Both the position numbers and the translations under genes were made by a program. A model generated the notes under the pieces. It saw only the letters and a list, made by a program, of their open reading frames with translations, ran no database searches and was not told where the DNA came from. Positions 4,353 to 56,105 of a stretch of 57,521 nucleotides of DNA are shown here, piece by piece; position 1 is the first letter of the stretch; each line of letters opens with the position of its first letter. Location: contig JASEHL010000001.1 of assembly GCA_030018805.1 (NCBI GenBank), forward strand, positions 1 to 57,521. The letters are read 5' to 3'. This stretch comes from Patescibacteria group bacterium (GTDB lineage: Bacteria; Patescibacteriota; Minisyncoccia; Moranbacterales; UBA11712).

Positions 4353-7300
4353 TCACTCTTCAAATCCTAATTTCTTTTTGATCGACTTATACTGCTTGTA
4401 TTCGCTGTCTGTCATATCATTAACGATTGTCTGAGCTTCGCCATCCTTCCCTTGCTTCAAAAGTTCCTGAACATTTTTGACTGTTTCTTCCATAGCCGGA
4501 CGCGCTTCCTCGGTCTTTCTTCGTTGGTCAGACGATTTGGCTTTTTTATATTTTTCGTAGTCGTCATCGGATAAATTGTCCACGATGACCTGGGCTTCTC
4601 CGTCTTTCCCTTCCGCAAGCAGTTTTTGAACTTTTTCGAAAGTCGGCTTGATGTCGATTATATCGCCGGAAGTGGAAATGCCTTTAGTGTCGAGCCCTTC
4701 TTGCTGAAATATGTATTTCATCTTTCCCCGCTCGTCATCATTTGGAAGGTTTTTTATGTATTCTTGCATTCTAGTTTTTCGATCTTCGGGAGATGCTTTT
4801 TTTAGTACTTCAAATAATGCAGCTTTTTCGTCTCTGGTATCCGCTTTTTGGAGTTCTTCTTCTGTTTTTGACGTTACGAATCGGCTAACAAAAGGTGTTT
4901 CTTTAGGTTGCGGAAGCTCACCTTTCGCTATCGCCGAAACAGTTTCCATTGTTTTGGAAATTGTGCGCCCAGCCCCACCAATCAGCTGATCATAAGCGTA
5001 TTTAGCATCCGCAGGAGATATTTCAATCTCTCCACCCGTCTTTTTGGATATAACGCCCGCAGCTCCTCGGAATAATCCGAATGTCTTCGATTTATCAGAC
5101 GGCTCACCTTGCTTATTTTGAAAAAATTGTTCTGATCTTGGCACACCTTCTTTATCCTCTGGACGCATAGGTGATCCAGTCCACTTTTTATTTCTCCATA
5201 TTTCTGATGGGGTATCGAGAATAGTTGGCGTAACTGATGATGGAATGTCAGTCCCTCCGGCAGGATTGTAAGCGTCAAGAGCCGATGCGATGATACCTTT
5301 CGTTGTGCCAAGCGCTCCGTCTTTATTTTTTCCCGCATAAGCATCCGACGCATAATCTGCTGCCACCTTTATCGGTTTGATTCCCCAACTAACCGGAATT
5401 TTGAAATAAGTCGCTCCTTTGTCGGATTTATACATCACGATCAGATTATTGGTTCGATCCCATTTATCAACCTTATCTCGCCAGTTTTCATCAACTGAAT
5501 CGTTCCACTTGTTCACGGCAAATACGGGAACGGCCACGCTCGTTATGGTTGCCGCGGCTACTTTGGGATTCTTCATTGCCTTGAGCATCTTCGTCGAACC
5601 CTGAATTGAAGCATTAGAAAACATATACAGGGAATTGATAATTTGCCCACCGGTTCCTTTTTTATTGAAGTTCACCGTCGCTTCTTTGGCGAGTTTCGCA
5701 GCTTGGTTACGTCCCATTCCTTTTTCGAGAGCAGTCTTATAAACTGATAAGCGTGTCGAATCTTCGAATACGGTGTTCCAACCATCTATTTTTCCCAATA
5801 TATATTGAGCTGTTTTTTTAGCGCTACTCCTGTTTAATTTTTGTATTTTTTCGATATTTAACTCTAGATTTTTTCGGGTTGAAAGTGCCATTCCGCCAGT
5901 TGTTCCGCCATCAAGCTGCATCTGTTGATAGAGCTTGCTGTTCCTGACGACATCGAGCATGCTCGCCGCATCTCTTCCGACAGTCTTTTCCGCACCTGAA
6001 AATCCGACATCTTTTTGCGCGGACATATAGACAGCCATTTCCTGAATGTCCCTGAGCTTGTTTGACAGCACGAATTCTGGGTTAAATCTCGTCGCTAACC
6101 CCGCGTAAAGACGAGTGAATGATCCGACAAATTTAAACACTCCGGGCAATTTGTCGTTCCCGACTCCCTGAAAAACTTTAGCTAGTTTCTCGTCTTCGAT
6201 TCTTAAATATATAGGTTTTCCTTTTTCTCGAATAGCAAGGGTCAAAGGATCGCGCACCTCTGCCAGGATAACTTTATCGTCAAAAGTTTTTCCTATCGCT
6301 TTCGGTTTAACTTCTTTGAAGATTCCCAGATCAGCGTTGTCCCTTGCGAATTTCAAAGTGGCAAGGTTGACGCGGTTCTTTTCAGCCCGTACAATAGCCT
6401 GTTCAAGATTCGCTGTGACATTCGTCATTATGTCCGCTACTTCCCTTTCACTTCCCTTGGCGCGTTTGATTCCCGTCCCTTTTGTCGAAAAGCCTTTGCT
6501 GGTTAGCGCTTGCCCCACATCTTCAGTTTCTTCAAAGAGGCGATTAAGCGGAACGTGATTTTTGTATGCCTTCTTTAGAGTTTCATAGAGTTCATCGCTG
6601 ATGACTTCGCTGTCGCGGAGAATATTTAAAGTGTTTGAGTGGACCTCCTTTACCTTGTCGGCAATTCTCTTGATTTCTCCGGCGTGCTTTTTCACTCCGA
6701 TTTCCATTAGAGTATTAGCCGCTTCGTCATCGGTCATTCCGGCCGCCTTTGTTCCCAACTTGGCATTTCTTTCCGGTGCGTGCGTGGCGATTAAGTATTT
6801 GTTCACATCCGCGTAAAGTTCTTTATCTTTTACTCCGACAGATTTGGCAGTTTTGAGAACATCCATGTCTACTTCCTTGACCGCTTCTTGAGCGAGCTCC
6901 AGTCTTCTCCCGACCCGTCCGTGAAAAAGTGTTTCCGCATCATAAGGATTCAAATCTTTAGAAACTTTGACTCCTGGCTCTCGTTGCAGATTTTTGACTC
7001 TAATCCAGTTGTCCTGCACGGTTTCGCGCGTTTTTGTCCACCATTCTCCGAAAACTGCTTTTTTGGCTTGTTTAAATATGCCAACCTTCGATGGATTCAC
7101 TTCGCCGGGAATCAAGTTTTTGTCCGCTTCAAATATTGACTTATAATCATTACTTTGCTTTAATTGGCTCAAAGTAGAATCTTTTTTGTATGAAGGACTT
7201 TTTAATATATCTTGGTCTGTCAGTCGTGGCGTTTCTTGTGGTAGAGTTTTTTCTAATGCAGAAGCCGTCTTACCAGTGCCAGCCGACGGATGAATGGTGC

Positions 7301-7679
7301 TTTGAGGAAACGCAGGAGCACTAGCCTTCCCCGCTAACTCCTCAAACACAACTTTTGGGTCCCGCACGCTTTTCAGTTTGGATGCCAAAGCGGGAATCTC
7401 ATTGTCGGCCACGCCGACTTTTTTCAATTCTTTCGCGACAGTCGTGGAAAGGACTGACTTGGCGATTCTGTTTGAGCTCACGGCAAGTTTCGCGCCCTCG
7501 ATGAAATTCTTCGCTTCGTCGGCGCTTTTGATGTTGATGATAGCCTTGATCATGTTATCCGTGGTCTTAATCCCCAATTTTTGGGCGACTTTGACCGCGG
7601 CGCGCGGCGTGAGAGCTTCCACGGCTTCCTTGGCAAGGTTTTTCGCCCCGAAGCTGGGGATTATGTCTCCCGCGACCAA
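4353..7679 (-). CDS. large (at least 1108 aa) island protein of unknown function; the true start is probably upstream (see findings)
   Basis: Long uninterrupted ORF. The C-terminus carries two copies of a roughly 45-aa repeat (LLAEGKDGEAQVIVDNLSDDDYEKYKK and LLKQGKDGEAQTIVNDMTDSEYKQYK). I recognise no family. Confidence 0.6.
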   Translation of the reverse strand: MVAGDIIPSFGAKNLAKEAVEALTPRAAVKVAQKLGIKTTDNMIKAIINIKSADEAKNFIEGAKLAVSSNRIAKSVLSTTVAKELKKVGVADNEIPALASKLKSVRDPKVVFEELAGKASAPAFPQSTIHPSAGTGKTASALEKTLPQETPRLTDQDILKSPSYKKDSTLSQLKQSNDYKSIFEADKNLIPGEVNPSKVGIFKQAKKAVFGEWWTKTRETVQDNWIRVKNLQREPGVKVSKDLNPYDAETLFHGRVGRRLELAQEAVKEVDMDVLKTAKSVGVKDKELYADVNKYLIATHAPERNAKLGTKAAGMTDDEAANTLMEIGVKKHAGEIKRIADKVKEVHSNTLNILRDSEVISDELYETLKKAYKNHVPLNRLFEETEDVGQALTSKGFSTKGTGIKRAKGSEREVADIMTNVTANLEQAIVRAEKNRVNLATLKFARDNADLGIFKEVKPKAIGKTFDDKVILAEVRDPLTLAIREKGKPIYLRIEDEKLAKVFQGVGNDKLPGVFKFVGSFTRLYAGLATRFNPEFVLSNKLRDIQEMAVYMSAQKDVGFSGAEKTVGRDAASMLDVVRNSKLYQQMQLDGGTTGGMALSTRKNLELNIEKIQKLNRSSAKKTAQYILGKIDGWNTVFEDSTRLSVYKTALEKGMGRNQAAKLAKEATVNFNKKGTGGQIINSLYMFSNASIQGSTKMLKAMKNPKVAAATITSVAVPVFAVNKWNDSVDENWRDKVDKWDRTNNLIVMYKSDKGATYFKIPVSWGIKPIKVAADYASDAYAGKNKDGALGTTKGIIASALDAYNPAGGTDIPSSVTPTILDTPSEIWRNKKWTGSPMRPEDKEGVPRSEQFFQNKQGEPSDKSKTFGLFRGAAGVISKKTGGEIEISPADAKYAYDQLIGGAGRTISKTMETVSAIAKGELPQPKETPFVSRFVTSKTEEELQKADTRDEKAALFEVLKKASPEDRKTRMQEYIKNLPNDDERGKMKYIFQQEGLDTKGISTSGDIIDIKPTFEKVQKLLAEGKDGEAQVIVDNLSDDDYEKYKKAKSSDQRRKTEEARPAMEETVKNVQELLKQGKDGEAQTIVNDMTDSEYKQYKSIKKKLGFEE

Positions 7680-7802
7680 AGCGACCGGCAGAAGCGCCGC
7701 TCCGAACTGGACGCCTTTTCCGTGATCTTTGTATTTTTCAATCTGTTCTTCGGCGAGGGTTTGAAGCGGTTTCCTTTTTTGTGAGCTGATTTTGGTTTCA
7801 TA

Positions 7803-8201
7803 CTAATCAATTCGTTTATATTTTTTACCATTCAGTTCGATAATCTCAGCGGAATCTTCGCATTCGTTTTTTGCTTCTTCGTCTGGCAATCCAATTTCTT
7901 TCAGAGTTCCGTATTCAACTTTCCCTTTTTCCAATTTTCCGCAGGTGATGGTTTTTTCATCTTCAGTGGGTTCTTTTTTCCAAACTGCGACACCGGCAAA
8001 AATTCGGTAGGAGATCGAGAGAGCTAATTTGCAAGTGATGAATAAGCCTGCTTCGATTCCCGAGCCTGCTTTGATTCCCTCGCCTGCTTCGATTCCCGAG
8101 CCTGCTTCTGCGAAAATATAACCGGTCGCACTTAACCGACCCGCGAATCTCACATAACCCAAACCACCCTCGATCTCGATATGTCCCTCATATGCAGACA
8201 C
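7803..8201 (-). CDS. hexapeptide-repeat (beta-helix-like) protein; start uncertain
   Basis: 132 aa from a GTG start. It contains AGSGIEAGEGIKAGSGIEAG, encoded by an 18-bp tandem repeat. Confidence 0.5.
   Translation of the reverse strand: MSAYEGHIEIEGGLGYVRFAGRLSATGYIFAEAGSGIEAGEGIKAGSGIEAGLFITCKLALSISYRIFAGVAVWKKEPTEDEKTITCGKLEKGKVEYGTLKEIGLPDEEAKNECEDSAEIIELNGKKYKRID
8046..8110. repeat. 18-bp tandem repeat, about 3.5 copies, inside a CDS
   Basis: gcctgcttcgattcccga / gcctgctttgattccctc / gcctgcttcgattcccga / gcctgcttc. Confidence 0.85.
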
Positions 8202-8352
8202 ATCCTCTTTCCCGACGTAATCTTTCCAATAATTGTCGGTTTCCTTGAATTCCTTTCTTTGAATTTTATTCCCAATTTTGAAACTCGCCTTTGCCAGCGG
8301 GAATTTCTTTTCCCTCGATATTGGTGCGACCCGTTTGTGAATTTGAATTTAC

Positions 8353-9153
8353 TCATCGCTTTATTTTTCCTTTGAAATTTTTCCTTATCTCTGCCAATTT
8401 TTCCATATTCTTTTTGCGATCTTCCTCGCTGATTGGAATTTCAGGCTCTTTTGGCTTTGGCGCGGGTGGCCTCTCGGGAAAATCTTTTTTTACGGCATTT
8501 AGGAGAAAAGACCGGTAGTTTCTATAGGTTTTTCCTTTCGCCTCGCAGTAGAGAAATAAGCTCTCCGCTTTGTTTCGCAACTGCCCGACCGATAAATCGA
8601 ATCTTTGAATAAAATAATCTTCATCGTCTTTTGGAATATTTTTAAGAAAATCGAGGGATGATGCGCCGCTAGGCGCGCTCTCTTTCTCTTCTCTTATCTT
8701 CTCTTTACTTCTCTTATCTTGTAATGGACTTTTTTGGGGATTATTATTTTTCCCAGAATTTTCTTGGGAAATTTTGGGGATTTTTTGAAACTTCATTTTT
8801 GACCGCTTTTCCGCACTTATTGACTGATGATTCTCAAATCCAAGGAACTCTATGCAATCTTGATAAACTGTGCATAACTTTTCAACCTCTATTCTATTGA
8901 CAAACTGCTTAATATCTTTTATAGTGATGTCTTTTATCATCGGACAAACTGTCGCTTTGATCACTTCGGGGTCGCTGTCGAGTAATCCATAATCGTCCAA
9001 ATGAGGAATAGACCACGTAAAAAGTATTTTCTCTTTTAGGTTTAATTTATTCACCTGTGCCGATAGGCTGATGCTTTTGCTTAACATGCGTTTTTGTGCC
9101 ATATTGTTTTGCTCTGGGCCGCCAACCCTAGGAAGATTGACAGCCCGGAACAT
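8353..9153 (-). CDS. hypothetical protein, possibly a replication or DNA-binding protein of the island
   Basis: 266 aa. Both the N-terminal region (FTWSIPHLDDYGLLDSDPEVIKATVCP) and the C-terminal region (YCEAKGKTYRNYRSFLLNAVKK) are reminiscent of phage replication-organiser or DnaD-like proteins. The assignment is weak. Confidence 0.35.
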   Translation of the reverse strand: MFRAVNLPRVGGPEQNNMAQKRMLSKSISLSAQVNKLNLKEKILFTWSIPHLDDYGLLDSDPEVIKATVCPMIKDITIKDIKQFVNRIEVEKLCTVYQDCIEFLGFENHQSISAEKRSKMKFQKIPKISQENSGKNNNPQKSPLQDKRSKEKIREEKESAPSGASSLDFLKNIPKDDEDYFIQRFDLSVGQLRNKAESLFLYCEAKGKTYRNYRSFLLNAVKKDFPERPPAPKPKEPEIPISEEDRKKNMEKLAEIRKNFKGKIKR

Positions 9154-9154
9154 C

Positions 9155-9511
9155 CTAGGTTAATTTAGCCTTGTATGTGTCTATGATGTGTTCGATATGC
9201 TTCTGATAAAATACTTCGAATGTTTTGGTCGATTTGACTTGTTTGTAATAAACGAAAATAACATTATACAGCCTCTCGCTTGGGGATTTTCCATCCATTC
9301 CCTTTTCAACCTTTGTCTTGCTTTCAGGGTCAACATCTGTCGGTTCGATTGTCATTCTCACGTTCAGGTTTTGAAGGTTCATAAAAAGCACCTTCTCGCT
9401 TGCGGAAAGCTCTGGTGTGCTTACGGAAAGACCGAGGGAACCGTCAACCTTGGCTCTGATCCCCGTGATGACGGCTTGAGATTCTATGCTTTGTGTTTTT
9501 TCTTTTTTCAT
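9155..9511 (-). CDS. hypothetical protein
   Basis: 118-aa ORF, tightly packed against its neighbours. Confidence 0.55.
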   Translation of the reverse strand: MKKEKTQSIESQAVITGIRAKVDGSLGLSVSTPELSASEKVLFMNLQNLNVRMTIEPTDVDPESKTKVEKGMDGKSPSERLYNVIFVYYKQVKSTKTFEVFYQKHIEHIIDTYKAKLT

Positions 9512-9529
9512 TTACTCGTAATAAATGGT

Positions 9530-10087
9530 TTATATTTCCCTAATATCGGATATTATTTGTATATCGCTTTCGACTTCATTTCCCCAAACATCCCAGCCCT
9601 CGGTTTTTTCTCTTGCGAATAATTCTATTCTTGGAATGTCGCCGACTAGCTGTATTATTTTATCTCTTGCTTCTTGCGGTTTTTCGCTATGCTTTCCTCT
9701 CGGCTGTTGAATAAGCTGAAACACTGATGCGGATATTCTCTTGGGCTTTCCCTTGGTGGCAATAAGGCAAGGTTCGGTATTTCCCCTTGTCCATCTCCCC
9801 AACCCATAAAAAGGAGTTCGGCTTTCCGGGTTTAATTTCAACCACTGAAACGCAATGCTTTTATATTCGAATCCCCACGCCTCAATCACTTCTAGCGCTT
9901 CTTTCAGCATTGGGTAAGTCGCCCAGAGAAACAAAACACAATCTTTATCCGCTAATCCCCCCCCACAGGAAGTTTTTTAATATCTTGCAGTTTCATTCCC
10001 TTGTAATGGTTTGCCATTGTTCCCTGACATCCTTGGTCGTTATAATTCCACGGCGGATCGGCATAAATTATTTGATATTTTTTTCAT
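9530..10087 (-). pseudogene. MT-A70 family N6-adenine DNA methyltransferase, interrupted at two homopolymers
   Basis: The C-terminal frame reads LADKDCVLFLWATYPMLKEALEVIEAWGFEYKS...HSEKP. The N-terminal piece KKYQIIYADPPWNYNDQG (DPPW motif) is in another frame. The ATG at 10087 is followed by an A7 run. A G8 run (plus-strand C8 at 9957-9964) separates the two pieces. Confidence 0.7.
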
Positions 10088-10165
10088 TTTTATTTTTTAG
10101 CTGTTGCGGGGGTTAGTATTGATCCAACCGAGCTGTATGATTCTGCTCACGGACCCGCAGTTGGA

Positions 10166-10330
10166 TTATTCCTTTTCCTCGTCTTGCGACAAGGCTTTCC
10201 ACTTTGGCTCAATAACCTTCAGAATTTCATCGAGATAAAAGCGTTGTTGCTCTACGCTTTTTTCAAACGACTTTATTCTGTCGGATATTTTTTTGAGAGC
10301 CTCGGCAACTTGTTTTTCGAATTCAGTCAT
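10166..10330 (-). CDS. hypothetical small protein (54 aa)
   Basis: Own translation: MTEFEKQVAEALKKISDRIKSFEKSVEQQRFYLDEILKVIEPKWKALSQDEEKE. It overlaps the upstream stop by 8 nt. Confidence 0.35.
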   Translation of the reverse strand: MTEFEKQVAEALKKISDRIKSFEKSVEQQRFYLDEILKVIEPKWKALSQDEEKE

Positions 10331-10937
10331 TGATTTTTTTATATTTAGTTTCCAACTCGTTGATCAGCTCTTTTCCTTTTTCAATTCCAACTTTGATTTT
10401 CTCTTGGCGTTCTACGTTGGGCGTGATCCGGAATACCAGCATATTTCTATCAAAGTTGGTGTTATAAAAGACTATATCCCACCACTTCCGGCCCGAAACA
10501 TACATACACATTTGAGCCTGCCAGATGTATTTTGTATCAATGGCGTTTTTTCCGTTCACCATCACCTTGAAGAAATTAGTATCGTTCACGCATTTGATTT
10601 CTAATCCGCCATCTTCACCGACAAGGCCATCCGGAGAACACCCGACAAGTTCATCCAACTCGATAAATCCAACCTGTTCGACTTTCTCCCGCTCGATTTC
10701 GTAAGTCATCCGGGCCTGATCCTCCAGCTCGATTCCCCTTTCGATGTCGCTGTTGGTGTATATCTCTCGGTTGTTAGAGTATTTTTCAGCGAGAAGCGAG
10801 TAAATGTACGTTTCGAGTCCCTTTCCGTTTGAGGCGATAGACTGGGCGTTTGACGCAGTCATTTTTCCCCGCCGGATTTCAAACCAATCCTCGCTCCTTT
10901 GGTCAATTTGATGCAGCTTCATTTTTTTTGGCATCAA
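10323..10937 (-). CDS. YqaJ-like viral recombinase exonuclease (PD-(D/E)XK)
   Basis: SEDWFEIRRGKMTASNA...GCSPDGLVGEDGGLEIKC fits the YqaJ domain pattern. Confidence 0.8.
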   Translation of the reverse strand: MMPKKMKLHQIDQRSEDWFEIRRGKMTASNAQSIASNGKGLETYIYSLLAEKYSNNREIYTNSDIERGIELEDQARMTYEIEREKVEQVGFIELDELVGCSPDGLVGEDGGLEIKCVNDTNFFKVMVNGKNAIDTKYIWQAQMCMYVSGRKWWDIVFYNTNFDRNMLVFRITPNVERQEKIKVGIEKGKELINELETKYKKIND

Positions 10938-11682
10938 GGATTAGGTCTTTTATCTCCTTGGCATAGGCGATGACTTCCTTATTAGCTTTAAGCTCTTTCG
11001 GCAACCTAATCCAAGTGTCGTTGAATTTCTTTGCGGTCATGCAATTTCCGAAAGCTTTTTTGACTTCTTCGATTTGATCCGAACTAACCTCCAGCGCCGC
11101 CTCATTATCCTCGTCCCCCGTCATAATCCCCAGCGCGTTCATAAAAGCATAGCGCTTGGAGAATGTCGCCGTGGCCGCTATTTGCTGCGGTTGGCTCATT
11201 ATTCCGGTCTTTGTGGTAAGCGGTGTTTCCATTTCAGACTGCTCGCTGTGTCCGGCGGTATGTTTCACGATTACAATTGACTTCACTTTGTCTGTACTCA
11301 CCTCGGTTTTTACCGAATAGCTCAACCCGTGCCTTGACAAAATTCCTTTCACTTGCCCAATAATTGATTCAAGCGGGGCATATTTATACAGCAACTTCCC
11401 TTGGTCGTTTTTTACCTCTTTGAGCTTTTTTATTTCCGGCAATTCGGCTTGAAAATCAGCCATTGCAAGATCAAACTGCTTTTTTGCTTCGGCGGCATCG
11501 ATCCGCTCTTTCATCGCCAATATCCTTTCAAAGGTTTCTACTGGCACACCCTTTTCGACGGCCTGTAAAATAATTGCTTCCATTGAAACTGGTCTGGCTT
11601 CTACTAGTCCCCTTTCTTCTTTAGGCGCTAATGCCTTTGATTCTTTTGACATAAGTTTGGTTGTTTGGTCGGGCATTACCAC
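10903..11682 (-). CDS. ERF-family single-strand annealing protein
   Basis: KKQFDLAMADFQAELPEIKK...LLYKYAPLESI...ATATFSKRYAFMNALGIMTGDEDNEA is ERF-like. It is paired with the exonuclease gene. Confidence 0.7.
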   Translation of the reverse strand: MVMPDQTTKLMSKESKALAPKEERGLVEARPVSMEAIILQAVEKGVPVETFERILAMKERIDAAEAKKQFDLAMADFQAELPEIKKLKEVKNDQGKLLYKYAPLESIIGQVKGILSRHGLSYSVKTEVSTDKVKSIVIVKHTAGHSEQSEMETPLTTKTGIMSQPQQIAATATFSKRYAFMNALGIMTGDEDNEAALEVSSDQIEEVKKAFGNCMTAKKFNDTWIRLPKELKANKEVIAYAKEIKDLILDAKKNEAASN

Positions 11683-11719
11683 CTTTCAGGGATAACGCCC
11701 GCCCAGACGGAAAGGTTAA

Positions 11720-11869
11720 TTACTCTACTTCCGCGACAAAAATATCCTTTGTCGCCAAGGCTTCTTTGAGGGCCTCGATAAGCGTGTCAGCCCCCAGCTC
11801 CGTTTCTTTCCATCCGACTGTTCCCTCTTCCGGGTTGTCGTTTGGCTCGACCATTTTGAATTTGGCCAT
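11720..11869 (-). CDS. hypothetical small protein (49 aa)
   Basis: Own translation: MAKFKMVEPNDNPEEGTVGWKETELGADTLIEALKEALATKDIFVAEVE. Confidence 0.3.
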   Translation of the reverse strand: MAKFKMVEPNDNPEEGTVGWKETELGADTLIEALKEALATKDIFVAEVE

Positions 11870-11944
11870 TGGGATGTGATTATTGATTAGGTCTTTTTGT
11901 CTTTGGGATAATGATTCGACCAGTTCCCCCCTTGATTTTGATTT

Positions 11945-12622
11945 TCATATACTTGCGATATATTTTTTGTAATTTCCATTTTTGAATTGCGACCACGGAT
12001 AGAATCCAGATTTTTGGTAAAGTTCGTAGGCGTATTTTACATTGAACTCCGGATCAAGAAGTTGACTTGGGTCTGGTCGTCCTTCAAGGTGTCGAATCTG
12101 AAAAACTCCATAGCTTGCTCCGTACTCTTTGCCGTCTTTATAAAATTTAAGATGTTGGTCTCCGATACTTTTCGGATTGAGATGGCTTTCGCTTTTGGCG
12201 ACGGCGATTGCGATTTTGGCTTCTTCTTCATTGTTCCAAATTTTCCTTATTAGTTTTTCAATCTCGGAAGGAGGGGCAGAAGTGATTTGATCCGCTTCTG
12301 CCGCTTCCGGTTGCTTGGTGGATTCAGTCTTTTGAGGAGCGACCTCGGAAACCGAATCGCCGACACTTTTTATTTCAATTCTTTCAATGTGGCTTTTCCA
12401 AGTTTGGTTTGCTTCTTGGTAGGTCTGGGAAAATGTGATGTAAAAATATCCCCAGCTTGCGAGTATGATTCCCGTAAGAAACATACACACGATGATTTGC
12501 AATCTCACCCTTTTCCACAAAGGAAATGTGATGATACGCATTTTTGTTTTTTGCCTTACACCCACGGGCTTATTATTTATTCCCCTGCGAAGCCCCCTAG
12601 CCGAGTGTTGCAACTGCCCCAT
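11945..12622 (-). CDS. membrane-anchored lytic transglycosylase (SLT/lysozyme-like)
   Basis: There is a TM segment (IIVCMFLTGIILASWGYFYI) followed by AVAKSESHLNPKSIG...YGVFQIRH. The start may be the internal MRIITF. Confidence 0.65.
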   Translation of the reverse strand: MGQLQHSARGLRRGINNKPVGVRQKTKMRIITFPLWKRVRLQIIVCMFLTGIILASWGYFYITFSQTYQEANQTWKSHIERIEIKSVGDSVSEVAPQKTESTKQPEAAEADQITSAPPSEIEKLIRKIWNNEEEAKIAIAVAKSESHLNPKSIGDQHLKFYKDGKEYGASYGVFQIRHLEGRPDPSQLLDPEFNVKYAYELYQKSGFYPWSQFKNGNYKKYIASI

Positions 12623-12725: not shown

Positions 12726-12948
12726 TGCTAAAGTCTATTTTACCCGCCGATGAGGCGGGAACGACCATATGGGTTTGTGCCTCGATAAATCGAAGCGACT
12801 TCACCGTATCTCCCTAGAAAGGAGGTGATCCATCCACAGGTTCCCCTACGGATGCCTTGTTACGACTTCACCCTTGTTATCGATCTTGCCATGGTACCCC
12901 TTGCGAGGTGCTTCAGGCATTACCGACTCCCTTGGTGTGACGGGCGGT

Positions 12949-13921
12949 ATTTGGATTCCCGCCTATAGCGGGATCACACACCGCCGGACGAACGGTTTTC
13001 CCGTATCCTGGCGGTTTCCAACGCTGGATCAAACTGTTTTTTGAAATTATGTTTTTTGCCGAACTTTCGCATTTTGTTGCGAAGCCGTTGGATTCTTTCA
13101 AAGCCCTTGTCGGTCAGATGTTCCTTTTCCCGCATCGCGAGAACAATCTTTTTGAAAAGTTTGTAAACATCCGCCTTCTTGGCTTCGAGAGGATGGCGGT
13201 CAAGGAATGGGAAAAGGATTTCCGTCAAGTCTCGCGTGCTGGTCACTTTGAGTTTGGCATGCGGATGCCATCCATATCGTTCATACGAACAATCATAGAT
13301 TCTTCCGCAGCCGATCGTCGCGACTATGCGCTCGAGAATTTTTCGGTCATCATCCCGAAGTTCAATTTCAAACTCCGGCTTTATTTCCACTCCTCTTTTG
13401 AGAGTCTTGTGCCGGTTAATACTAACCGAGAAAGACCCTTCGCCATCAATGAATCCGGAAACATAATATGGATTCAGTTTTTTGCATTGGATTTGCTCCT
13501 TCCCAAACGGATCTTTCAAACGCGGATTGCGCTCGAAAGGCTTTCGCTTGGTACTATGAGCTCGGCTGACTTCTTGCATGGCTTGAATCAAAAATTACTC
13601 TTTGATTTTACTTTATAATTCTCGTGGTTAGTATACCACAGAATTAAAAGACCATACAAGATCTCCCTTGGTCACTCAATAAACATTTTGACGCCGTCTC
13701 GATAAACCGATACATATATATCTTATTTGAAGATGGCTTCCTCATGTACTCCCAGAGTCGCCAAATATATATGTATTTGTTGTTTATTCAAGCTGGCATC
13801 TGCTACTTTCACCCTTCAGTCCGATCCTCACGGAGTCGAACCTGTGATTTCGCTTCATGGATTCTTCAATATCCTTGGTCGGATTCACACCGACTAGCTT
13901 ATTGGGCTGCAAGGCACCCGA
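12949..13921 (-). other. about 0.97-kb intron-like insertion in the 16S rRNA 1390-1400 region
   Basis: It separates ...GGTCTTGTAC (13930..13922) from ACCGCCCGTCACACC (12948..). It contains a homing endonuclease ORF. The exact splice boundaries are not resolved. Confidence 0.7.
12974..13591 (-). CDS. LAGLIDADG homing endonuclease (single-motif type)
   Basis: 205 aa. YVSGFIDGEGSFSVSI is a LAGLIDADG motif. The ORF lies inside the rRNA insertion. Confidence 0.85.
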   Translation of the reverse strand: MIQAMQEVSRAHSTKRKPFERNPRLKDPFGKEQIQCKKLNPYYVSGFIDGEGSFSVSINRHKTLKRGVEIKPEFEIELRDDDRKILERIVATIGCGRIYDCSYERYGWHPHAKLKVTSTRDLTEILFPFLDRHPLEAKKADVYKLFKKIVLAMREKEHLTDKGFERIQRLRNKMRKFGKKHNFKKQFDPALETARIRENRSSGGV

Positions 13922-13983
13922 GTACAAGACCCGAGAACGTATTCACCGGGACATGGCTGATTCCCGATTACTAGCGATTCCGG

Positions 13984-14034
<51 letters not shown>

Positions 14035-14152
14035 GGATTGGCTCCGCCTCGCGGCTTGGCTACCCATTGTACCGGCCATTGTAGCATGCGTGTCGCCCAG
14101 GGCGTCAGAGGGCCATGCTGATTTGACGTCATCCCCGCCTTCCTCCCAGCCC

Positions 14153-14329
14153 GATGCGCACTCGCTGCGCGAGTGCTAAATTAAAAACTTAAAATTAAAA
14201 GTGAAAAATTATGGAGTCTCGCTGCGCTCGACAATTTACTTTATACATAAATAGTCATGCGCGAAGCGCATACCAGAATTTTTACTTTTTCATTTTTACT
14301 TTTTAACTTAGCGCGCGTAGCGCGCATTG
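14153..14329 (-). other. ORF-less intervening sequence in a 16S hairpin loop (E. coli about 1130-1140)
   Basis: The native stem cccagccc (14145-14152) pairs with gggctggg (about 14330-14337) and is extended by an insert. The insert arms aaattaaaaacttaaaattaaaagtgaaaaatt and aatttttactttttcatttttactttttaactta are complementary and have a 7-nt period. Confidence 0.6.
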
Positions 14330-14408
14330 GGCTGGGCAGTCTCGAGTGACACTTGTAACACTCGACAGGGGTTGCGCTCGTTTCCCGACTTAACGGAACA
14401 CCTCACGG

Positions 14409-14439
<31 letters not shown>

Positions 14440-15005
14440 CCAGCACCCTCGAAGGCTATCATGTTTCCATGATATGCAGCTGGATTTCAAGCCCTGGTGA
14501 GGTTCCTCGCTTATTGACGAATTGAACCGCGTGCTCCACCGCTTGTGCGGGTCCCCGTCTATTCCTTTGAGTTTTAAGCTTGCGCTCGTACTTCCCAGGC
14601 GGCCTGCTTAACGCGTTAGCTACGGTCCTGAAAGGGTCGATACTTCCAAGACCTAGCAGGCAACGTTTAGGGCGTGGACTACCGGGGTATCTAATCCCGT
14701 TCGCTACCCACGCTTTCGTGTCTCAGCGTCAGACAAAGCCCAGTTCACTGCCTTCGCCTTTGGCGTTCCATATGATATCAACGCATTTCACTGCTACACC
14801 ATATGTTCCATGAACCTCTACTTGTCTCGAGTGATGACGTTTCAGATGCGGCTCCAACGTTGAGCGCTGGAATTTGACATCTGACTATCATCGCCGCCTA
14901 CACACGCTTTACGCCCAATAAATCCGGATAACGCTTGAGGTCTCTGTATTACCGCTGCTGCTGGCACAGAGTTAGCAACCTCTTATTCCTACCGTACCGT
15001 CAGAA

Positions 15006-15437
15006 GTGAGATGTGAGAAGTTAGATGTGAGATTTTATTTCCATCTTTCCCTTAACCTGTATAATTGTTTGCCGATAATATCGTATTCTTCTATTAATTT
15101 ATCGGCAATATTTTTTTCTCCAAATTCAGCATTAACTGAATCTTCTATATGACTCATAACTTCATTACATGAACCTAGAGATCGAGTTAGATACAGCTTA
15201 AATTCCGCTATAGATCTTCCGTATCCTTCTGCAATATTCGAATGAATCGAATTTGCAGCTCTGCACATTTGATCTCTTAGATGTTTTGCTTCAAAGGGAA
15301 ATGTTTTTGTATAATTTACAATCTGTGGATACAATTTTTTTGATCTTTGGTAAACATCAAGATCTTTAAAACTTTTAATCATATCCAAATTATACAACAA
15401 TTATATCTCACTTCCCACCTCTCAACTCTCACCTCTT
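15006..15437 (-). other. intervening sequence in the 16S V3 helix carrying a four-helix-bundle protein gene
   Basis: The arms gtgagat/gtgagaa/gttagat/gtgagat (15006-15033) and atctcac/ttcccac/ctctcaa/ctctcac (15405-15435) are inverted 7-nt tandem repeats. The flanks are normal 16S sequence (..ACCAGAAGAAG and CTTCTGACGGTAC..). Confidence 0.65.
15035..15400 (-). CDS. four-helix-bundle protein (23S rRNA-intervening-sequence protein / Avd-like family)
   Basis: 121 aa. FKDLDVYQRS...FPFEAKHLRDQMCRAANSIHSNIAEGYGRS...EFKLYLTRSLGSCNEV fits the family pattern. It is in the same orientation as the rRNA. Confidence 0.8.
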   Translation of the reverse strand: MLYNLDMIKSFKDLDVYQRSKKLYPQIVNYTKTFPFEAKHLRDQMCRAANSIHSNIAEGYGRSIAEFKLYLTRSLGSCNEVMSHIEDSVNAEFGEKNIADKLIEEYDIIGKQLYRLRERWK

Positions 15438-15519
15438 CTTCTGGTAGAAAAGAAGTTTACAACCCGAAGGCCTTCATCCTTCACGCGGCGTCGCTCGGTC
15501 AGGCTTTCGCCCATTGCCG

Positions 15520-15550
<31 letters not shown>

Positions 15551-15610
15551 TTGGGCAGTGTCTCAGTCCCAATGTTGGGGATCATGCTCTCACATCCCCT
15601 ACCCGTCATA

Positions 15611-15648
<38 letters not shown>

Positions 15649-15809
15649 ACACAGGCCGCTCCTCAAGCGATAAATCTTTACTCCGAAGAGAACTATCTCG
15701 CATTATTCCCCCTTTCGAGGGATTATTCGAGACTCAAGGGTACGTTCCTATGCATTACTAACCCGTTTGCCGTGCCGCCAAAGGCGGCACGCGACTTGCA
15801 TGCCTTATC

Positions 15810-15849
<40 letters not shown>

Positions 15850-15989
15850 AATAAGAATTATTTCGATAAAATAAATTACCAAAATAATTTTGAGAACCCG
15901 GAATTTTTTGATAGAAATTCCGGCGAACTCTATAAAAGTAACTGATTTTGAATAGATCGTTTGGCACTTCCCCGACGTTACGTCGGGGC

Positions 15990-24067: not shown

Positions 24068-26271
<2,204 letters not shown>

Positions 26272-52559: not shown

Positions 52560-52566
52560 GATTGTC

Positions 52567-52640
52567 GAATTATGAATTATGAATTATGAATTATGCAAGC
52601 AAAAAAATATTCTTAATTCATAATTCCTAATTCATACTTC
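52567..52640. repeat. intergenic heptad-armed hairpin, (gaattat)4 type
   Basis: gaattatgaattatgaattatgaattatg, a loop, then cttaattcataattcctaattcatacttc. Confidence 0.85.
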
Positions 52641-52643
52641 ACC

Positions 52644-54956: not shown

Positions 54957-56105
54957 ATGCACTATACTTGTACCATGCTTATTCTTGCCATTGAAACATC
55001 CTGCGACGAAACGGCGGTGGCTCTTGTTGAGGAAAAAAGGGGCGGTTTTTTCGTAATTGACGAATATGTTTCTTCGCAAACAAAAACCCACGCGCCATTT
55101 GGAGGAGTTGTTCCCAATCTTGCGGCCAGGGACCACTTGAAAAATCTTCCTTTGCTCCTCAAAAAAATCATCGCGAAGAACAAAATCAAGCGGAATAATA
55201 TTGATTTGATCGCCGTGACGGAAGGTCCGGGACTCATTCCGGCGCTGCTCATCGGCACGAATGCGGCGAAGGCCATTGCCTATGCCTGGAAAAAACCGCT
55301 GGTCGGCGTGCACCATATTGCGGGACATATATATGCGAACTTCATTCACCTTGTTAAATCCCCGACGTCACGTCAGGGTGCGGCTTTGCCGCAATTTAAC
55401 AGGGTAAAATTTCCTATTCTCGCTCTCATTGTTTCTGGAGGGCACACGGAGCTCATATTCATGAAAAAGCATATGGATTTCAAAATCGTCGGTCAGACTC
55501 TCGACGACGCGGCCGGCGAAGCTTTTGATAAGGTGGCTAAGATTTTGGAGCTGGGCTATCCCGGCGGACCGATAGTTTCTCGGCTGGCAGAACTTTACCA
55601 AAGTTCGACTTTTCCCTCCCAACAACGGAGTTGTCGGGATTCCTCAAAGTCGAACTTTTCGCTGCCGCGGCCCATGATCAATTCAAATAACCTCAATTTT
55701 TCCTTCTCTGGCCTGAAGACCGCCGTACTTTATACCATTCGAGACAATCCGAAAACTCTGAAAAGCAAAAAACTGACCAGCGAGCTTTGCGCCGAATTCC
55801 AGCAGGCCGCGATTGACGTGTTGGTGTCAAAAACAATTCGCGCGGCCAAAAAATATAAGCCCAAAACCATTCTTCTCGGTGGTGGTGTCTCGGCCAACAA
55901 GGAACTGCGCCGCCAGCTCGGCGAGATCATAAAAAAACAGATACCAGATACCAGATACCAGATACCAGATACAAAATACTCCCTCGACAACGCTGCCATG
56001 ATTGCCGTAGCCGGATATCACAAGTGGAAATTTTCGAAAAACAGGAAACCGTTCTATAATAACTGGAGAACATTCGAAGCGGACGCGAATCTTAAGTTGA
56101 ATTAG
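54957..56105 (+). CDS. tsaD: tRNA N6-adenosine threonylcarbamoyltransferase with three in-frame repeat inserts
   Basis: 382 aa with ILAIETSCDETAVA, VGVHHIAGH, SGGHTELI and NAAMIA. The likely start is MLILAI at 54975. Confidence 0.9.
   Translation: MHYTCTMLILAIETSCDETAVALVEEKRGGFFVIDEYVSSQTKTHAPFGGVVPNLAARDHLKNLPLLLKKIIAKNKIKRNNIDLIAVTEGPGLIPALLIGTNAAKAIAYAWKKPLVGVHHIAGHIYANFIHLVKSPTSRQGAALPQFNRVKFPILALIVSGGHTELIFMKKHMDFKIVGQTLDDAAGEAFDKVAKILELGYPGGPIVSRLAELYQSSTFPSQQRSCRDSSKSNFSLPRPMINSNNLNFSFSGLKTAVLYTIRDNPKTLKSKKLTSELCAEFQQAAIDVLVSKTIRAAKKYKPKTILLGGGVSANKELRRQLGEIIKKQIPDTRYQIPDTKYSLDNAAMIAVAGYHKWKFSKNRKPFYNNWRTFEADANLKLN
55347..55408. repeat. family-A palindromic element inside tsaD
   Basis: caccttgttaaat-ccccgacgtcacgtcaggg-tgcggctttgccgca-atttaacagggtaaa encodes LVKSPTSRQGAALPQFNRVK. 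Confidence 0.85.
55600..55658. repeat. palindromic insert (family G) inside tsaD
   Basis: The arms are aaagttcgacttt (55600-55612) and aaagtcgaacttt (55646-55658). It encodes SSTFPSQQRSCRDSSKSN. Confidence 0.8.
55939..55980. repeat. (ataccag)n heptad tandem array inside tsaD
   Basis: cagataccagataccagataccagataccagatac encodes IPDTRYQIPDTKY. Confidence 0.9.

Follow-up and report, generated by a model that had tools for sequence, protein, structure and literature searches.

How can a bacterium with a reduced genome carry a protein-coding gene inside its only 16S rRNA gene, and to which class of elements does such an insert belong? The question is raised by a stretch of 57,521 nucleotides (contig JASEHL010000001.1 of assembly GCA_030018805.1, from a Patescibacteria group bacterium), hereafter the window, in which an open reading frame (ORF) of the four-helix-bundle family PF05635 lies within the V3 region of the 16S rRNA gene. 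The source is a metagenome-assembled genome (MAG) of 1.02 Mb in 82 contigs, 99.7% complete, whose MurD is 76% identical to a Candidatus Moranbacteria homologue, which assigns it to the Parcubacteria, within the candidate phyla radiation (CPR). A single match to the small-subunit rRNA was found in the whole genome and, since this is the sole 16S gene of a genome of such completeness, the insert must be tolerated or removed. We propose that it is probably an intervening sequence (IVS) of the RNase III type, of the ORF-bearing kind present in Coxiella and Leptospira, located at the tip of helix 17.

The position of the insert could be read from the alignment to the bacterial small-subunit model of Rfam (RF00177, 1238.6 bits), which covers 13891-15855 on the minus strand and in which the conserved 16S core is intact. 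The alignment mis-ends at 13891, and the actual 3′ end of the gene, ...GGATCACCTCCTTTCT, was recognised by reading the sequence at about 12818. A block of 419 nt remains unaligned at model positions ~455-465, corresponding to the tip of helix 17 in V3, where relatives of the same order without the insert have 21-23 nt. A preliminary description, made from the letters of the window, had proposed an ORF-bearing insert inside the V3 helix at 15006-15437; the Rfam placement and the profile matches reported below confirm the insert and its location, while its exact ends were revised to ~15004-15434, within 3 nt (Table 1).

The insert is delimited by two inverted arms, each made of four tandem heptamers, and the units that we read in both arms are those initially described. 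The periodicity is not a peculiarity of this locus, as the arms of 30 related loci gave an autocorrelation of 0.54 at lag 7 versus 0.23-0.28 at other lags. Together with the native base of helix 17 (UUUCUACC/GGUAGGAA), the arms fold as 8 bp plus ~28 bp, with a dG of −46.8 kcal/mol and z = −7.6, a stability matched by 0 of 200 shuffled sequences; the fold of the whole IVS has z = −8.3. In the computed structure, the arms extend the native helix into a near-continuous duplex of ~28 bp, and the rRNA helix closes around the insert through its 8-bp base, as had been anticipated. Moreover, pairing between the 5′ and 3′ arms is stronger within a locus (mean −46.8 kcal/mol) than when the 3′ arm is taken from another locus (mean −32.0 kcal/mol).

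A long duplex of this kind is the geometry expected for a double-strand-specific RNase, as first suggested, and the genome does encode RNase III (rnc, C29:85-738; TIGR02191, 245 bits, cut-off 166). On the other hand, the 16S genes of CPR bacteria are rich in group I and group II introns, and one group II intron interrupts this same gene further downstream, so that a self-splicing or protein-assisted intron, with ligation of the 16S halves, had to be considered. In the region 14990-15450 no Rfam family, group I and II intron cores included, was found at E ≤ 1; as a positive control, RF01998 was recovered in the neighbouring insert. In addition, the ends of the insert are long inverted heptamer arrays, unlike intron cores; its ORF matches PF05635 only, and is not a homing endonuclease, a maturase or a reverse transcriptase; and it lies in a helix tip of low conservation, while the introns of CPR bacteria, according to Tsurumaki et al. 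2024 (PMC11270868), are found in conserved segments. The intron was thus rejected, with neither a catalytic-core match nor an intron-type ORF in its favour, and we regard it as highly improbable. Stem geometry, rnc and the lack of an intron model all fit the RNase III-type IVS. No intrinsic terminator was found on the rRNA-sense strand of the insert.

The ORF (15035-15400, minus strand) runs in the sense of the rRNA and shows strong matches to PF05635 (E 3.6e-24, 85.4 bits, cut-off 33.8) and TIGR02436 (E 7.7e-23, 80.8 bits, cut-off 24), which settle its family membership. A product of 121 aa from the TTG at 15400 had been assumed; however, 35 homologues start with MIKSF and, therefore, the ATG at 15382, giving 115 aa, is the more likely start. 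A profile built from the protein and its relatives finds in the PDB Xcc0516 (2GSC; 1.4e-13) and BT_0352 (2RLD). The AlphaFold (AF2) model of the monomer consists of four helices, with a pLDDT of 97.9, and superposes by Foldseek with TM scores of 0.94 on 2GSC, 0.84 on 2RLD and 0.75-0.77 on Avd, the accessory protein of diversity-generating retroelements (DGR). The conserved motif of the family, RxxxSxxxNxxE (Lin 2006 and Zhang 2014, as quoted in PMC3936711), is present as R41-AAN-S45-IHS-N49-IA-E52, and R41, N44 and E52 are invariant in the 35 homologues. The ORF is clearly under strong purifying selection and kept functional: dN/dS is 0.07, 0.02 and 0.04 for three orthologue pairs, and between close copies the changes in the ORF are mostly synonymous and the arms almost invariant.

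The fold is the same four-helix bundle as that of Avd (PDB 4DWL, 8UB7), and Pfam places Avd-like proteins with PF05635. By contrast, sequence identity to Avd is only 8-10%, and neither a reverse transcriptase nor a template/variable repeat lies beside the gene. The possibility that it is a DGR avd gene was rejected on context, as 16S rRNA sequence is present on both sides of it.

Upstream of the gene, a −10-like hexamer, TATAAT, ends 6 nt before the ATG. With the hexamer defined as TAnAAT or TATACT, matched at 5 or more of 6 positions, we compared 73 distinct homologous cassettes (by cassette we mean the arms, the box and the gene together): 45 have such a box ending 6-8 nt upstream of the ATG, and 0-4 have one at any other offset; 14 of the 45 also bear a TGn extension. 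The background, measured on 407 long ORFs of the same genome, is 7%. This conserved position suggests a candidate internal promoter, from which a leaderless mRNA could start within the IVS. The lack of a Shine-Dalgarno (SD) sequence, initially considered as an argument for a leaderless mRNA, was dropped, because an SD-like motif precedes only 6% of the long ORFs of the genome, with starts called crudely.

Table 1. Coordinates of the features in the window.
Feature	Position	Strand	Basis
16S rRNA gene, 3.04 kb, three insertions	12818..15855	(-)	RF00177 match; 3′ end ...GGATCACCTCCTTTCT read; exon continuity 13920/12948 in L081/L107
IVS at the tip of helix 17 (V3), 431 nt	~15004..15434	(-)	419-nt block unaligned by Rfam; empty sites of 21-23 nt in relatives; shared junction
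5′ arm: AGGTGAG AGTTGAG AGGTGGG AAGTGAG (+AT)	15405..15434	(-)	sequence and fold; near-invariant in L081, L082
3′ arm: ATCTCAC ATCTAAC TTCTCAC ATCTCAC (+TT)	15004..15033	(-)	sequence and fold
Native base of helix 17, 5′ strand (UUUCUACC), pairs with 14986-14993	15443..15450	(-)	fold; equivalent stems kept in relatives
Native base of helix 17, 3′ strand (GGUAGGAA)	14986..14993	(-)	fold; equivalent stems kept in relatives
PF05635/TIGR02436 four-helix-bundle gene, 115 aa, sense to rRNA	15035..15382	(-)	profile matches, predicted fold, dN/dS
TATAAT −10-like box, ends 6 nt before ATG; candidate internal promoter	15389..15394	(-)	positional conservation in cassettes
Second 16S insert, helix 40 region: ORF-less long hairpin, ~188 nt	14147..14334	(-)	fold z = −6.0; 11 nt at this place in L107
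Third 16S insert: group II intron with LAGLIDADG_1 ORF (12974-13591), 971 nt	12949..13919	(-)	RF01998 at 13496-13609 (D1-D4); PF00961 1.3e-19
Second four-helix-bundle cassette, ORF 32322-32687, TTTTCAA/TTGAAAA heptamer arms, within type IV pilin gene cluster	32266..32727	(-)	PF05635 1.9e-15; 56-nt inverted arms; arm fold z = −6.8
Third cassette, frameshifted and truncated (~30929-31260), ATGGAAC/GTTCCAT heptamer arms	30893..31307	(-)	sequence and fold

Since the window comes from a MAG of 82 contigs, and rRNA regions are prone to misassembly, a further explanation would be an assembly chimera or a dead 16S pseudogene copy. However, the insert was found at the identical junction (GAAGAAG^...^CTGAyrGTA) in L081/L101 (JGI 3300028735; 96% protein identity to the window ORF), L082 (ENA ERZ27247960; 87%), L102 (metagenome contig Ga0315268; 87%) and L103 (metagenome contig Ga0078972; 97%, frameshifted), as well as in two much more distant organisms, L107 (65% protein identity, flanking 16S 76-86% identical) and L111 (61%, flanking 16S 82-85% identical). 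As at least five independent assemblies, from different projects, share the insert at the same junction, the chimeric join that the preliminary description had itself considered is excluded. The 16S core is, moreover, intact in what is the sole copy of the gene, and this explanation, effectively refuted, retains practically no probability.

The closest known system is the IVS in the 23S rRNA of Coxiella burnetii, which carries an S23p ORF (Afseth 1995; Warrier et al. 2016, PMC4990558). This element has a 28-bp stem with tandem GACAGAT heptamers and carries a same-family ORF; RNase III cleaves it at mid-stem, and the half-life of the IVS RNA is 3.9 min (PMC4990558). The insert in the window resembles it in size (~430 nt versus 428-444 nt), in its 28-bp terminal stem of inverted repeats, in the heptamers of the arms (RGKTGRG here, GACAGAT in Coxiella) and in the sense PF05635-family ORF in the loop; in both cases the element occupies an rRNA helix tip, the rRNA gene is present in a single copy, and the genome is reduced and encodes RNase III. 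On the other hand, the host molecule is helix 17 of 16S rather than helix 45 of 23S, the ORF is under strong purifying selection whereas that of Coxiella is decaying and apparently untranslated, and the place taken in Coxiella by a putative SD is occupied by a −10-like box, 6 nt before the ATG. The ORF-bearing 23S IVS known from Coxiella and Leptospira is thus closely matched, down to the 28-bp heptamer stem, by an element in a CPR 16S rRNA.

By analogy with this system, the arms would fold into the stem in the pre-16S transcript, and the RNase III of the genome would cut within it, releasing an RNA of ~400 nt and leaving the rRNA ends unjoined. As a result, the mature 16S rRNA would be in pieces, one of ~420 nt on the 5′ side of the cut and the remainder on its 3′ side, kept in place by what is left of the stem and by ribosomal proteins; if the hairpin in helix 40 is also cut, fragments of ~420, 670 and 375 nt are predicted. 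The protein could be made either from the excised RNA or from a leaderless mRNA begun inside the IVS at the conserved −10 box. As to its role, our best guess is that it binds nucleic acids as an oligomer, in the manner of the homologous Xcc0516 and Avd, and that it may serve the maintenance or spread of the cassette rather than the function of the ribosome. The greater length of the 16S gene and the predicted fragmentation of its rRNA bear on amplicon surveys and on rRNA-based quantification of these organisms.

Alternatively, the insert might be retained as an expansion segment, the long extension of helix 17 staying in the mature 30S subunit with the ORF region on the ribosome surface. The length of the helix-17 tip does vary from 21 to 1251 nt in relatives, and DNA alone is no proof of cleavage. 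Against this, a 28-bp perfect-type duplex is a generic substrate of RNase III, for which the gene is present; the homologous element of Coxiella is cut in the middle of its stem (PMC4990558); and CPR rRNA inserts are reported by Brown et al. 2015, as cited by Tsurumaki et al. 2024 (PMC11270868), to be removed from transcripts. Furthermore, the dN/dS values of 0.02-0.07 are hard to square with a translated or promoter-bearing coding loop of 350 nt in each ribosome. We consequently hold the expansion segment to be unlikely.

Several points weigh against the RNase III-type IVS as we have outlined it. Cleavage has been demonstrated by experiment for the Coxiella IVS, whereas the insert in the window is known from its sequence; its excision, the fragmentation of the 16S rRNA, the cut sites and the expression of the ORF are predictions, and the RNase III specificity in CPR bacteria is putative. 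The stem is not perfectly continuous, as it holds three small internal loops. As for the internal promoter, a scan of the sense strand of the insert found no full −35/−10 (canonical sigma-70) promoter, and in the window copy the TG directly abuts TATAAT, unlike the canonical TGn spacing; the argument for it is, for these reasons, one of positional conservation. Finally, Coxiella offers no guide to the function of the protein, its homologous ORF being in decay and apparently untranslated.

That ORFs of this family are classically described in 23S rRNA holds for the IVSs of Coxiella and Leptospira; for CPR bacteria, 16S inserts with 23S_rRNA_IVP ORFs were already in print. In fact, Tsurumaki et al. 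2024 (PMC11270868) counted 18 PF05635 ORFs in inserts of 16S and 4 in inserts of 23S rRNA genes (380 and 348 CPR genes, respectively); most of these inserts lack an intron signature, and the ORFs are 'scattered across several insertion sites'. For protein families of this kind, the authors cite Brown et al. 2015. Phenomenon and clade coincide with ours, and the insert in the window is a further example of these published ORF-bearing 16S inserts. Compared with the text of that paper, what is additional here are the inverted heptamer arms, the stem, the movement of the cassette as a unit (helix 6, helix 17, leader, 23S), the universal sense orientation, the −10-like box and the selection on the ORF. 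With the exception of the arms and the stem, these points, with the selection on the ORF being strong, also go beyond the literature that could be found, as does the link to genome-wide heptamer hairpins.

The rRNA context was classified for ~110 loci encoding the closest homologues. Most of them are in helix 6 (V1) of 16S rRNA, 7 in helix 17, 5 just upstream of the 5′ end of 16S, 4 in 23S and ~5 outside rRNA genes. The rRNA-borne copies are in sense orientation in every case, and, in the window genome, all the non-rRNA copies (9/9) are co-oriented with both neighbouring genes. The protein tree consists of two clades, one of helix-6 copies only and the other mixed, with the helix-17 group of the window nested in the mixed one (99*), and the site labels on the tree require at least 11 changes. 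The copy in helix 6 of 16S at L127 and those in 23S at L053, L056 and L128 are homologous in arms, TGATATAAT box and ORF, and have unrelated flanks; since homology stops at the flanks, the cassette moves as a unit, arms included. These comparisons show that, in CPR bacteria, arms, −10-like box and gene travel together among helix 6, helix 17 and the leader of 16S, 23S and intergenic sites. No transposition enzyme or mechanism was identified for the cassette. The hypothesis that the arms are tandem copies of a heptamer of the target (native 16S GTCAGAA, similar to GTGAGAT) was rejected, as the same arm type accompanies the gene to unrelated sites (helix 6 in L045, a non-rRNA site in L050, and L127 compared with L056).

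The mobility of the cassette leaves room for two further explanations. The first is that it benefits the host, with the 16S gene acting as a strong expression platform for a needed protein, e.g. a chaperone of rRNA or ribosomes or a defence factor, and its mobility being incidental. The strong purifying selection on the ORF would agree with this, as would the maintenance of the cassette across taxa with 76-95% 16S identity, the ~11 paralogues in a reduced 1-Mb genome and the occurrence of PF05635-family members in cas operons (PMC3936711). However, close relatives of the same family lack the cassette at helix 17 or have other inserts there, the sites are patchy, the tree demands many site changes and frameshifted copies exist (L103 and the third copy in the window). 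Patchy sites, site changes and frameshifted copies form a pattern more typical of a selfish element, and a benefit to the host appears to us rather doubtful.

The second, equally speculative, explanation is that the insert represents one landing of an autonomous, self-moving gene cassette with no transposase, composed of heptamer arms, its own −10 promoter with leaderless mRNA, and a gene, which would colonise helix tips in transcribed RNA genes and operons, always in the sense orientation, the Avd-like protein being its own mobility or maintenance factor and acting on the heptamer stem. A possible route would pass through an RNA intermediate, namely release by RNase III, ligation into another cut helix and reverse transcription; such a route would account for why all copies are in sense, why the target is not duplicated and why there is no recombinase. 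We assign this scenario a rather low probability. In any event, the comparative set collected here, which includes 16S helix 6, helix 17, leader, 23S and intergenic sites, is suited to asking how the widespread PF05635 family spreads and what its protein does.

IVSs that are substrates of RNase III and contain no ORF occur in the 23S rRNA of Salmonella, Yersinia and Alphaproteobacteria, and in the 16S rRNA of Campylobacter/Helicobacter and Clostridium paradoxum. The insert in the window shares with them the extension of a helix tip that forms a long duplex; theirs is removed without religation, leaving the rRNA fragmented but functional. The difference is the gene, which those IVSs do not have. 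Closer to them are the second insert of the same 16S gene, in the region of helix 40, and the helix-17 hairpins of L017, L024 and L026. The arms of the helix-40 hairpin are likewise composed of 7-nt units (AAGTAAA AATGAAA / TTTTCAC TTTTAAT), and it looks like a relative of the cassette that has no gene. The third insert, the group II intron, interrupts 16S at E. coli position ~1400, and in L081 and L107 position 13920 joins 12948 directly; this place, for a group II intron with LAGLIDADG_1, corresponds to the known CPR site 16IS9 of Tsurumaki et al. 2024 (PMC11270868). The 23S rRNA gene is on a separate contig (C35:362-4444), so that 16S and 23S are unlinked; it contains inserts, and no PF05635 gene was found among them.

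At the helix-17 position, other relatives hold ORF-less heptamer hairpins of 73-183 nt or different inserts of 420-480 nt, and, given this variety at the same position, the tip of helix 17 is an insertion hot spot. Inserts of the latter kind were observed in L028, L037 and L040 (same-family relatives G011, G001 and G005), which have in common the outer arms GGAGAATCCAATTACAC...TTGTGTTGAGA / TCTCAACTCAATTCC...GTGTAATTGA and contain small, mutually unrelated ORFs (62, 86 and 81 aa), all three preceded by a strong SD; these inserts look like one frame with swapped cargo. The 16S of L081, ~95% identical to that of the window, bears the same helix-17 cassette, its other inserts being different: the group II intron is absent, one insert of ~310 nt lies in V1, and two with LAGLIDADG_2 lie at the window-equivalent positions 14965 and 14688. 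As L081 carries a different set, the insert content turns over fast between close relatives. In L103 (Ga0078972_1007882, 1208-1555), bases are lost in the A-run GAGAAAAAAATATT and the ORF is broken after ~96 aa, which reflects either a decaying copy or an assembly error.

Three copies of the gene had been noticed in the window, and three were found, at 15035-15382, 32322-32687 and ~30929-31260, the last one frameshifted and truncated. The phylogeny of these copies, which had been put forward as a check, gave very long branches, indicating that they are not recent duplicates; with BLASTP not significant as well, a recent duplication among them was rejected. The other ~10 PF05635 genes of the genome, among them the two further ones in the window, are only distantly related to the 16S copy, and nearly all of them bear heptamer arms of their own, with a unit sequence that differs by locus. 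The 3′ arm of the third cassette (GTTCCAT ×4; 30880-30925) overlaps the annotated start of a prepilin peptidase ORF (30068-30916, minus strand; MFHVPCSM...), whose true start is probably the downstream ATG (MVSIFF...).

Heptamers are, in fact, a general feature of this genome, in which 115 tandem tracts were counted at period 7; periods 9 and 10 gave 2 and 1, respectively, and periods 5, 6 and 8 none. Examples in the window are at 52563-52641, 24290-24531, 24859-24958, 28665-28709 and 55932-55980. Recurring families of units are CATGGAA, TTTTGAT, GGTATCT, GAATTAT and AAGTCAA, and many inverted pairs enclose no gene. Heptamer tandem repeats (STRR) were reportedly described by Mazel, in 1990, in heterocystous cyanobacteria. 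Repeats of the GGGNATC type are known from Xanthomonas and Nostoc (Rehm et al. 2015, PMC4692102). As in those systems, the tandem 7-nt repeats are genome-wide and mostly lie between co-directional genes; by contrast, the unit sequences differ, and those papers are not known to draw a link to PF05635 genes or rRNA inserts.

Adjacent to the 16S gene, on its downstream side, lies a block (4353-12622, minus strand) that resembles a phage or mobile element and encodes an LPD38 large polyvalent protein of 1108 aa, an MT-A70 methylase, a YqaJ exonuclease, an ERF recombinase and an SLT lysozyme-like protein.

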